Shown piece by piece: positions 59,803 to 60,773 of a stretch of 64,000 nt of DNA. This DNA comes from an uncultured Candidatus Saccharibacteria bacterium (GTDB taxonomy: Bacteria; Patescibacteriota; Minisyncoccia; Phycocordibacterales; Phycocordibacteraceae): positions 8,074 to 72,073 of the forward strand of contig CAYNNZ010000004.1 in assembly GCA_964398815.1 (NCBI GenBank), in the 5' to 3' direction. Each line of letters starts with the position of its first letter. The first letter of the stretch is position 1. Both the position numbers and the translations under genes were made by a program. The notes beneath the pieces were generated by a model. The model was not told where the DNA came from. It saw nothing but the letters and a program-made list of their open reading frames with translations, and made no database searches.

Positions 59803-59812
59803 GTAGAAGCGG

Positions 59813-60052
59813 TCACCCGGATGACCGCTTCACCACTTTGACTTCGCGTCTGCGGATGAACTTATCCATACCCGCAACGTGATAGCTCGGGATGCCCTCG
59901 GGATCATCTTCTTGATTGCGTCCCTTCACGCGCACCTGCGTTCCGATAAGTTCGCAGACACACCCCGGATTGTCGCCGTGGACCTGAGCTTCGCAGCTGT
60001 GAATGACCACGTCCTCGCCGATGATCTTGTCATCGTATGTCCAGCACAGCAT
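59813..60052 (-). CDS. hypothetical small protein (79 aa)
   Basis: ATG 60052 preceded by AAGGGGAAGG. Cys-containing (CWTYDD, HSCEAQVHGDNPGCVCE). Confidence 0.45.
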   Translation of the reverse strand: MLCWTYDDKIIGEDVVIHSCEAQVHGDNPGCVCELIGTQVRVKGRNQEDDPEGIPSYHVAGMDKFIRRREVKVVKRSSG

Positions 60053-60066
60053 GGCCTTCCCCTTCA

Positions 60067-60094
60067 ATTATCACAACGTGCCTGTTGTGATAAT
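60067..60094. promoter_or_regulatory. 11-bp inverted repeat upstream of the 60052 gene
   Basis: ATTATCACAAC-GTGCCT-GTTGTGATAAT. Possible operator or 5' hairpin. Confidence 0.3.
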
Positions 60095-60129
60095 CTCACA
60101 CCATTCGGATGTAAGCATACTTACCTCTG

Positions 60130-60290
60130 ACATTCGGGCCGTATCCATTGCTTGCATGGATACGTTCCCTCGTTCCGGAGAAACCGTACAAGCATACTTG
60201 TCCGATTCTCCTACTCTCGGGCCGTATGTAGGCATACGACCTTTCATTCCGCTCGAATATCAAAAGCTTTTTTGATATTCTCGCTACATT
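60130..60290 (+). repeat. two tRNA-Pro 5'-fragment repeats embedded in a hairpin array
   Basis: ACATTCGGGCCGTA at 60130-60143 is identical to 60286-60299 (the leader plus first 9 nt of tRNA-Pro-GGG). TCGGGCCGTAT recurs at 60217-60227. Unit spacings of 83 and 73 nt are tRNA-sized. Neither upstream unit has a matching 3' acceptor strand. Confidence 0.5.
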
Positions 60291-60361
60291 CGGGCCGTAG
60301 TATACCGGTAGTACGCGTCCATGGGGTGGATGTAGACCGAGTTCGATTCTCGGCGGCCCGA
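60291..60361 (+). tRNA. tRNA-Pro (anticodon GGG), CCA not encoded
   Basis: Acceptor CGGGCCG/CGGCCCG (C1-G72); D arm GTAT-ACCGGTA-GTAC; anticodon arm CGTCC-ATGGGGT-GGATG; T arm CCGAG-TTCGATT-CTCGG; A73. Confidence 0.9.
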
Positions 60362-60365
60362 CAAA

Positions 60366-60773
60366 TCACATTTTGAAAACTTTGGTCGCAACGATGTAGG
60401 TGAGCCCTGAAGTGACGGCAGTCATAATTGTTCCCCACGCAATATCGATAAGCGCACCATAGAGCGGCCAGCCAGTGAGCGTCGCAATATTCGTGAGGTC
60501 ATACGTCATGTATGCAGTCGCGCCGAGAACGGCACCCCATATAACGGCTGTGGATAACGAACGGAGGGCGAGTGCGGGTTTGAGCACGAAGAAAATGAGC
60601 GAGAGCGAGTAGACGACGTAAAAGATTCCAGCAGCCCACAGGACCGGGTCAGGACGGAAGAACGCACCGAACTGCGCATGATAGAACCCGCTTGCGATGA
60701 CGCCTATCCAGCTCGCGTCGAGCGCGACCGAAATAGGAAGTGCGAGACAAAAAAGTTTGAGATACGTTCTCAT
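60366..60773 (-). CDS. DUF2177-like four-TM membrane protein
   Basis: 135 aa. LDASWIGVIASGFY, MTYDLTN blocks (recalled family resemblance). Confidence 0.65.
   Translation of the reverse strand: MRTYLKLFCLALPISVALDASWIGVIASGFYHAQFGAFFRPDPVLWAAGIFYVVYSLSLIFFVLKPALALRSLSTAVIWGAVLGATAYMTYDLTNIATLTGWPLYGALIDIAWGTIMTAVTSGLTYIVATKVFKM

Follow-up and report, generated by a model that had tools for sequence, protein, structure and literature searches.

The 64,000-nucleotide (nt) stretch analyzed here, from contig CAYNNZ010000004.1 of an uncultured Candidatus Saccharibacteria bacterium and hereafter called the window, contains a proline transfer RNA (tRNA) gene, tRNA-Pro(GGG), preceded by a hairpin-rich spacer that carries short copies of the 5′ end of that tRNA. 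The local gene order is YceG (+), an open reading frame (ORF) of 79 amino acids (aa) (−), the spacer, tRNA-Pro(GGG) (+), DUF2177 (−), TspO (−), tRNA-Val, tRNA-Pro(CGG), and SWIB. As an earlier reading made from the letters alone (the sequence-only reading) had proposed, the 14-mer ACATTCGGGCCGTA occurs within the spacer and again across the real tRNA start (60130-60143 and 60286-60299), and a third, shorter copy, TCGGGCCGTAT, lies at 60217-60227. A repeat finder recovered the three as one direct-repeat family with the tRNA-sized spacings of 83 and 73 nt that had been described. The exact 10-mer TCGGGCCGTA has three copies in the 64-kb window, all inside the spacer, where chance would supply ~0.0002 further copies per 240 nt. 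Eight independent assemblies (JGI, Logan, and ENA) that carry an identical DUF2177 protein have this spacer with 100% identity, which excludes an assembly artefact. The source names attached to homologues suggest a genome of Parcubacteria/Patescibacteria type. A 191-nt stretch of it has a minimum free energy (MFE) of −60.4 kcal/mol, with z = −5.8 against dinucleotide shuffles.

All six hairpins named in the sequence-only reading, including the 11-bp inverted repeat at 60067-60094, were recovered by an inverted-repeat search and MFE folding. They belong to two kinds of hairpin, P1 and P2, in the order P2a-P1a-P1b-P2b-P1c-P2c-tRNA (Table 1); the hairpins previously described around GTATCCAT and GTATG are the inner parts of P1b and P1c. 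In modules b and c, each acceptor-strand copy is the 5′ arm of its own hairpin and meets a largely complementary strand within ~20 nt. The upstream units do therefore have a counterpart of the 3′ acceptor strand that they had been said to lack. Two features had been overlooked: a further degenerate unit at 60105-60130 (P1a) and the homology of the P2a and P2c palindromes (60067-60094 and 60255-60280; 78% over 27 nt, right arm plus tail). The P1 5′ strand matches the tRNA 5′ end at 9/9 positions in modules b and c and at only about 5/10 in P1a, which is 87% identical to 60223-60237 and begins ~9 nt past a predicted −10 element. The window spacer is 2.5 copies of a previously undescribed, clade-wide tRNA-leader module. 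Rfam 15 gave no match at or near gathering score on the modules, either in the window or at 16 other loci, and the literature searched contained no description of the module; a survey of tRNA genes in Patescibacteria, dated 2026, is confined to group I introns (PMC13011429).

Table 1. Features of the spacer upstream of tRNA-Pro(GGG) and its borders, in window coordinates. R1 is the covariance model described in the text.
Feature	Position	Strand	Description
Divergent small ORF	59813-60052	−	ORF list; 79 aa from ATG, 84 aa from TTG at 60067; bounds the spacer, outside the module array
P2a	60067-60094		Perfect 11-bp palindrome ATTATCACAAC / GTTGTGATAAT; homologous to P2c (inverted- and direct-repeat findings)
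Extended −10-like TGTGATAAT/TGATAATCT	60086-60096 (pattern 60088-60096)	+	Right arm of P2a
P1a	60105-60130	+	Degenerate P1, CGGATGTAAG-CATA-CTTACCTCTG; fifth-position mismatch; partial tRNA 5′-end identity (MFE)
Direct repeat copy 1	60130-60143	+	ACATT + CGGGCCGTA, leader −5 to −1 plus tRNA nt 1-9
Module b	60135-60217	+	P1b, linker TCGTTCC, P2b, tail TACTCT; R1 full length; MFE; z = −4.3
P1b	60135-60169	+	GGG.CGTATCCAT / ATGGATACG..CCC; 12 bp, 7-nt loop
P2b	60177-60211	+	GGAGAA..ACAAG-CATA-CTTGT..TTCTCC
Module c	60218-60290	+	P1c, linker TTTCATTCCG, P2c, tail CTACATT; R1; MFE; z = −4.3
P1c	60218-60242	+	GG.CGTATG-TAGG-CATACG.CC
P2c	60251-60284	+	Core palindrome 60255-60280
Extended −10-like TGATATTCT	60273-60281	+	3′ arm of P2c; 9 nt before tRNA +1
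tRNA-Pro(GGG)	60291-60362	+	ARAGORN; RF00005, 49.1 bits; intact, CCA not encoded

The module is 70-90 nt long and consists of P1 followed by P2, the P2 hairpin stopping 2-11 nt short of the next P1 or tRNA. P1 typically contains 10-12 pairs (range, 8-13) within a helix of 11-13 positions; its 5′ strand reproduces the initial 7-10 nt of the tRNA that follows, often together with the preceding 1-5 nt. P2 is a hairpin of 10-18 bp whose sequence is very variable, and a pyrimidine-rich CTC tail closes the module right where the next P1 or tRNA starts. A scan of metagenomes with the pattern CGGGSCGTA, a 55- to 85-nt gap, and CGGGSCGTAGTATACC returned 52 loci; ARAGORN classed 45 of the 53 pattern matches as a non-tRNA copy ahead of a genuine tRNA-Pro (GGG, CGG, or TGG), and true tandem tRNA-Pro pairs (CGG, then GGG) occur in only five loci of this set. 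About 27 distinct "classical" units share the layout of the window, and all of them fold as P1 plus P2 (median module z = −5.0); window module c is identical to L149, a locus from the metagenome scan. A similar scan of genome contigs (CGGGCCGTAN{55,85}CGGGCCGTA) yielded mostly chance matches or coding repeats in high-GC genomes, and among the matches listed only one was informative, a Candidatus Paceibacteria metagenome-assembled genome (L103) with a non-tRNA CGGGCCGTA 77 nt ahead of tRNA-Pro(CGG). Two cruder scans, one for strict 7-mers with their reverse complements and one parsing MFE structures for two hairpins, missed most known modules. Upstream 5′-copies of other classes were also seen (L144, L161, L163, and L173; L147 and L180; L168, L169, and L174): one class runs through the D arm and adds an anticodon-arm-like hairpin with a 13-nt loop (AAGTGC...GCATTT), a second ends in the anticodon loop of tRNA-Pro(TGG), and a third consists of CGGGCCGTAGCCCCGAC... 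followed by two GC-rich hairpins.

To build a covariance model, R1, we used 28 modules taken from other loci and left out every sequence of the window. In the 64-kb window, R1 matched 60135-60217 at full length (28.4 bits, E = 1.2e-5) and 60218-60286 (19.2 bits, E = 0.003), and its next-best match elsewhere in the 64 kb reached 8 bits (E = 2.5). In 331 kb of related loci, it gave 47 non-redundant matches at E < 0.01, all on the tRNA strand; 35 of the 47 directly adjoin a tRNA (for Pro, GGG/CGG/TGG; for Ala, CGC/GGC; for Arg, CCG) and the other 12 adjoin another module. All 47 end 0-11 nt ahead of the tRNA or the next module, as do the two in the window, where the match to module c stops 4 nt short of tRNA +1 and that to module b runs up to module c. 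The module is widespread in Patescibacteria/Paceibacteria-type genomes.

The substitution patterns indicate that pairing in both P1 and P2 is under selection. For P1, 83.5% of cells are paired compared with 72.3% in shuffles (0/500), the covariation score is 0.272 versus 0.112 (slid-partner controls, ≤0.09), and 8 of 12 pairs show double-sided changes; among 31 sequences, a U8.G wobble is present in 13, position 5 is mismatched in 16, and C1 is unpaired in 17. An alignment with MAFFT and RNAalifold recovered P1 and not P2, which varies in length and contains bulges, so P2 was folded sequence by sequence and its test was restricted to a geometry-matched subfamily of 11 sequences. In this subfamily, 93.7% of positions are paired versus 75.2%, the covariation score is 0.627 versus 0.248, double changes affect 10 of 13 pairs, and a U.G wobble, which fits a sense-strand RNA only, occurs in 7 of the 11 sequences. 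At one locus (L178), a P1 that has drifted from its own tRNA retains a compensated stem (GGACACA/..GTGTCC). At another (L175), the outer strands of three adjacent P1s are identical and the inner stems unrelated.

Arrays of two to three copies are found at L142, L146, L160, L175, and L182 and in the window, and from these arrays module duplication appears to be ongoing. Within the window, the exact 10-mer AAGCATACTT at 60113-60122 and 60190-60199 forms the core of both the P1a and the P2b hairpins, with flanking stems that differ by compensatory changes (GTAAG/CTTAC and ACAAG/CTTGT); the shared core and these stems suggest that one of the two hairpins was derived from the other within the array. 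Duplication could also account for the modules with no function at all: hairpin-rich DNA beside the tRNA would be duplicated again and again by slippage or unequal exchange, the copies would decay, and the units would be idle. We think this quite unlikely. It would fit the orthologous interval of relatives, which lacks repeats or even a tRNA (see below), the greater divergence of distal than proximal modules from the tRNA (window P1a; L164, L182, and L178), the near-identical adjacent units of L142 and L170, which point to recent duplication, and the longer fragment classes through the D arm or to the anticodon loop, which resemble plain partial duplications. However, the compensatory changes in both hairpins and the compensated stems of diverged P1s speak for selection on pairing, the architecture is common to dozens of lineages and three tRNA families whose P2 sequences are otherwise unrelated, and outer strands have stayed exact beside wholly diverged inner stems.

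The module is not confined to tRNA-Pro. Among the tRNA-Ala genes of the same loci, which had not been selected for, 5 of 36 are preceded, at a distance of 69-76 nt, by an exact duplicate of their first 9 nt (~0.04 expected), and each of the five copies forms a P1 followed by a P2; no such copy lies upstream of the 18 tRNA-Val or the 17 tRNA-Gly genes there. A tRNA-Arg (L182) carries a module with 8/9 identity. The P1 outer strand follows its cognate tRNA: each of four distinct Ala acceptor sequences has a P1 that matches it, Pro modules stand before G5 tRNAs when their fifth base is G and before C5 tRNAs when it is C, with one exception, and where a different tRNA-Pro lies just upstream (L135 and L184), P1 matches the downstream tRNA and not the upstream one. 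The inner P1 hairpin TAAGC-RAA-GCTTG is common to Pro, Ala, and Arg modules, and the outer 7 bp differ with the tRNA. All five Ala P1s have G3-C in place of the G3.U70 pair of the tRNA; mimicry of an aminoacyl-tRNA synthetase substrate was rejected for Ala because of this replacement. Of the interpretations offered by the sequence-only reading, that of a tRNA-derived structured RNA gains support from this two-hairpin leader module, which covaries and recurs at tRNA-Pro, tRNA-Ala, and tRNA-Arg genes of many related genomes.

P1 might itself be a functional minihelix that mimics the acceptor/T-stem top half of a tRNA and serves as a cis processing or decoy site for RNase P, RNase Z, and/or the CCA-adding enzyme; much like plant-mitochondrial t-elements or mascRNA, such a site would serve to punctuate the precursor, to set free a small P1(-P2) RNA, or to titrate a factor that binds the acceptor. 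We consider this reading unlikely. The size of P1, ~11-13 positions, is near that of the 12-bp acceptor plus T stack, and some P1s have exactly 12 bp (CGGGGCGTAAGC-AAA-GCTTGCGCCCCG in L164). P1 follows a short CTC-rich leader like that of the tRNA, with an equal −1 base in 18 of 26 modules; its outer stem tracks the cognate tRNA over Pro (C5 or G5), the four Ala acceptor variants, and Arg, and the copied strand is exact even where inner stems have turned over. Nor is a minihelix lacking CCA disqualified, since the tRNA-Pro(GGG) here does not encode CCA and the RNase P RNAs of the Candidate Phyla Radiation (CPR; Patescibacteria) are diverged, about two-thirds of them without the CCA-binding UGG (PMC8172020). 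On the other hand, RNase P, RNase Z, and the CCA-adding enzyme read shape rather than acceptor sequence, so that sequence tracking would be unneeded. P1 loops are 3-7 nt long, are not T-loop-like, and are unrelated to TTCGAAT; C1 is often unpaired and position 5 often mismatched (see the counts above); the Ala P1s swap out the G3.U70 identity pair; and no discriminator-like base or CCA-like tail is conserved after P1. It is doubtful, if somewhat less so, that P1 represents a new class of cis-encoded acceptor-stem mimics that co-evolve with their cognate tRNAs (Pro, Ala, and Arg) in Patescibacteria and act in tRNA biogenesis, with possible roles as RNase P/Z punctuation or entry sites, as released minihelix RNAs, or as decoys for an acceptor-reading factor.

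Close relatives were sought through the adjacent DUF2177 protein, which led to identical strains, short contigs (L009 and L010), or rearranged loci (L011-L013 and L187-L190). The interval between DUF2177 and YceG is variable among these relatives. L011 and L012, whose DUF2177 is 76% identical to that of the window, have the identical tRNA-Pro(GGG) plus tRNA-Ala(CGC) and no repeats; L013 is rearranged at the locus, L187 has only a tRNA-Ala there, L190 has a 138-aa gene, and L188 and L189 have no tRNA in the interval. Taken alone, this comparison would suggest lineage-specific drift, and formally it shows the unrelated orthologous spacer that the sequence-only reading had named as the mark of strain-specific drift. 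But the module family is present elsewhere in these relatives: in the close relative L012, R1 alone found a module before tRNA-Ala(GGC) whose P1 start, GGGCCTATA, equals tRNA nt 1-9. The array of the window is therefore not strain-specific drift.

The same loci bear on the history of the tRNA genes. In L011 (916-989) and L012 (516-589), tRNA-Ala(CGC) lies 24 nt after tRNA-Pro(GGG), and L151 has the order Val-Pro(CGG)-Pro(GGG)-Ala. The window has the DUF2177 stop codon 4 nt past tRNA-Pro(GGG) (60363-60366) and contains no tRNA-Ala in its 64 kb. Comparison of these orders points to a tRNA cluster that was broken up and rearranged in the lineage of the window. The short contigs L010 and L009 share the same DUF2177 protein (96% identical to that of the window) and have different tRNA-Pro genes next to it, TGG in L010 (983-1054) and GGG in L009 (1135-1190). 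The two tRNAs have common acceptor and T arms and a common sequenced part of the D arm, and the L010 contig begins exactly at tRNA nt 1. The difference may reflect genuine variation or else a mis-joined or broken contig at shared segments of 31 nt or more.

Two further interpretations in the sequence-only reading, decayed tandem tRNA-Pro duplications and scars of mobile-element integration and excision, are largely refuted, and we regard them as highly improbable. In their favor are the tRNA-sized period of 73-83 nt, the five loci with true tandem tRNA-Pro(CGG)-tRNA-Pro(GGG), and a T-arm resemblance. In this resemblance, GTCCGATTCTC at 60200 matches the T arm GTTCGATTCTC at 10 of 11 positions, but the piece in question, CCGATTCTCC, sits where other modules have the TATTCT −10-like arm of P2. 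No tRNA-like signal was found in 60054-60292 with RF00005 at E ≤ 10 and lax filters, ARAGORN finds only 60291-60362, and the acceptor copy pairs ~20 nt away rather than ~65 nt away as in a cloverleaf remnant. As for scars, the repeats cover −5 to +10, that is, the 5′ end of the tRNA and not its 3′ end, their spacing is 43-94 nt, and no integrase is nearby, the neighbors being YceG, the 79-aa ORF, DUF2177, TspO, and SWIB. Neither history accounts for tRNA-Ala and tRNA-Arg genes that carry the same module, each with its own acceptor sequence. An IS200/IS605-type insertion or a miniature inverted-repeat transposable element (MITE) with target duplication was also rejected, as the P1 3′ strand is tRNA-specific and terminal inverted repeats are absent.

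A promoter-like motif accompanies the modules. The sequence TGnTAnnnT (mostly TGnTATTCT) stands 8-11 nt before the tRNA in 11 of 27 modules and before P1 in 11 of 27, compared with 3.6% of shuffled 40-mers. In the TGnTATTCT versions, the "n" is a bulged base of the P2 3′ arm, so that a properly spaced extended −10 is present on the sense strand only. The pattern TGNTAWWMT has 11 sites in the window, and outside the spacer six or seven of nine lie at the 5′ ends of same-strand ORFs; a generic scan of the window for sigma-70 −35/−10 pairs found nothing. TCGGA was considered as a −35 element and rejected, its distance to TATTCT varying from 20 to 26 nt. We infer that transcription in the window would start near 60101-60103, ~3 nt before P1a, and near A60288, with a leader of ~3 nt. 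GC-rich versions of P2 are without the motif, and some P1s come directly after another tRNA (L135, L154, and L184); there, P1-P2 must be transcribed as a leader or spacer.

That the palindromes act instead as DNA, as bidirectional promoters or operators, or that the functional RNA is antisense to the leader, seems to us very improbable. The perfect palindrome at 60067-60094 does present TGTGATAAT in both orientations, one toward the small ORF and the other toward the tRNA, folding of the antisense strand is no poorer than that of the sense strand, and P2 stems overall contain 37 A.C against 13 G.U positions. But P2 is unrelated between lineages and offers no conserved protein half-site, spacer lengths within P1 range from 3 to more than 12 nt, the U8.G wobbles of P1 and the U.G wobbles of P2 fit a sense RNA only, and the bulged base leaves correct extended −10 spacing on the sense strand alone. 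The strand test based on G.U versus A.C positions gives opposite answers for P1 and P2, and the A.C excess in P2 could reflect an antisense or DNA-level constraint or a constraint on the sequence of the 3′ arm. In P2 stems (for example, in modules of L162, L179, and L146), the mismatch typically sets an A of the purine-rich 5′ arm against a C of the pyrimidine-rich 3′ arm, and two A.C mismatches also occur in a single proximal Ala P1 (L178, 3385-3457).

Upstream of these tRNAs lies a conserved, tRNA-linked two-hairpin module, the first strand of which copies the acceptor strand and which is present in tandem in the window. The explanation we favor, with a probability of roughly 45%, is that the modules are duplicated promoter/tRNA-5′-end cassettes that have been retained as a structured leader with a putative function. 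An AT-rich P2 would carry the extended −10 (TGnTATTCT) 8-11 nt upstream of the next CGGG, so that the repeated cassette would comprise a promoter, a 2- to 4-nt leader, and the acceptor 5′ strand. Duplication of the promoter/tRNA-5′ junction would create new cassettes, and unequal exchange would keep them tRNA-like. Of the two starts proposed for the window, the upstream one would yield a long precursor bearing five hairpins and the downstream one a precursor with almost no leader. In the MFE structure of the leader plus tRNA, upstream copy b pairs with the 3′ acceptor strand of the tRNA, which implies that free copies could compete with the genuine 5′ strand; such competition by spare acceptor strands is physically plausible in this model. 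Selection would then keep the leader folded, with P1 locking the spare acceptor strand locally so that it does not compete for the tRNA 3′ strand, and P1 would give the primary transcript a 5′ helix like the tRNA top half. Cleavage by RNase P at tRNA +1 would remove the leader.

Several points weigh against this explanation. About one-third of the modules have no recognizable −10 on either side, and start sites, co-transcription, and processing are all inferred. The A.C excess of P2 stems does not favor a sense RNA for the AT-rich versions. The tRNA-Pro modules were retrieved by an exact 9-mer, so that identity in that segment owes something to ascertainment; in modules that only the model detected, P1 differs from the tRNA by 0-5 mismatches. 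Spare strands that were mere harmful by-products should be erased, yet in L175 they are exact while the inner stems diverge fully, which suggests that the copied sequence itself is useful. Finally, an inner P1 hairpin common to Pro, Ala, and Arg modules combined with a tRNA-specific outer stem is not easily explained by independent local duplications.

The remaining features of the locus lie at its edges or concern its annotation. The 79-aa ORF was called as a gene in six of the eight loci with the identical DUF2177 protein, had no match in Pfam, and is not present in L011 or L012. The minus-strand copy of TGTGATAAT in the P2a palindrome ends 14 nt before the ATG of this ORF, and GAAGGGGAAGG precedes the ORF; the palindrome may thus serve as a bidirectional promoter, the 5′ untranslated region being very short. 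Between the convergent YceG gene and 79-aa ORF, an 11-bp hairpin at 59806-59831 (GAAGCGGTCA.CC/GG.TGACCGCTTC) is terminator-like on the minus strand and is probably a terminator shared by the two. In the modules themselves, a terminator scan flagged only P1c, weakly, through its ACCTTTCATT tail, and the tails that follow P1 at other loci are not U-rich. A leader peptide, suggested by a GGAG resembling a Shine-Dalgarno sequence and an ATG in some P2 5′ arms, was dropped as a candidate because these are absent from the window modules. RF00005 missed the tRNA of the window and that of L149 in 3-kb or multi-locus searches and detected the former in a 151-nt search with the score given in Table 1, a discrepancy that we attribute to speed filters rather than to a defect of the tRNA.

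The module resembles several known systems in part. tRNA-like processing signals are found inside longer transcripts, such as the t-elements of plant mitochondria and signals of the MALAT1 mascRNA type; like these, P1 is an acceptor-like hairpin embedded in a precursor beside other RNA, with a helix near the length of the 12-bp acceptor plus T stack. Unlike them, the module is bacterial, lies in cis to its cognate tRNA and duplicates the acceptor strand of that tRNA, is often tandem, and has no T-loop or cloverleaf, and its cleavage is putative; a search with RF01684 gave only a chance-level match, on the tRNA itself. Bacterial stable-RNA operons can have tandem promoters, for example, rrn P1 and P2, and the window likewise has two same-strand promoter-like sites 185 nt apart (60088 and 60273) upstream of a stable-RNA gene. 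In contrast to rrn promoters, however, the cassette repeats the first 7-10 transcribed bases of the tRNA within a hairpin, and its −10 lies in the 3′ arm of a long hairpin. Attachment (att) fragments of integrative elements are also short direct tRNA repeats beside an intact tRNA gene, but these derive from the 3′ part of the tRNA and bracket kilobases of element that include an integrase, whereas the modules repeat 5′ portions at 43-94 nt, without an integrase and with conserved hairpins in three tRNA families. tRNA pseudogenes and tandem arrays share the near-tRNA period and units that open with an acceptor strand; the modules differ in having no D, anticodon, or T arm, in being negative with RF00005 and ARAGORN, and in an acceptor copy that pairs ~20 nt downstream. 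Repetitive extragenic palindromes (REP), bacterial interspersed mosaic elements (BIME), and MITE-like families similarly consist of repeated hairpin units in noncoding DNA, but the modules are not dispersed, are detected by R1 solely in the position directly 5′ of tRNAs and on the same strand as these, and lack terminal inverted repeats and target duplications of fixed sequence.

Patescibacteria have tiny genomes, single-copy tRNA genes, and diverged RNase P RNAs, and the expression and maturation of their tRNAs are poorly known. Because the acceptor-copying leader module is conserved with covariation over many lineages and in three families of tRNA, and neither Rfam nor the literature searched contains it, the module opens a concrete and testable way into how this group transcribes and processes its tRNAs. 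It also accounts for contig breaks, and possibly for mis-joins, at tRNA-Pro genes in assemblies. Were P1 to prove an acceptor-stem mimic acting in tRNA biogenesis, the tandem copies in the window would represent functional dosage of a signal rather than relics, and bacteria would have an equivalent of the tRNA-like processing signals of organelles and eukaryotes. If the mimicry is not functional, the module would be a clear case of concerted evolution of promoter/5′-end cassettes.

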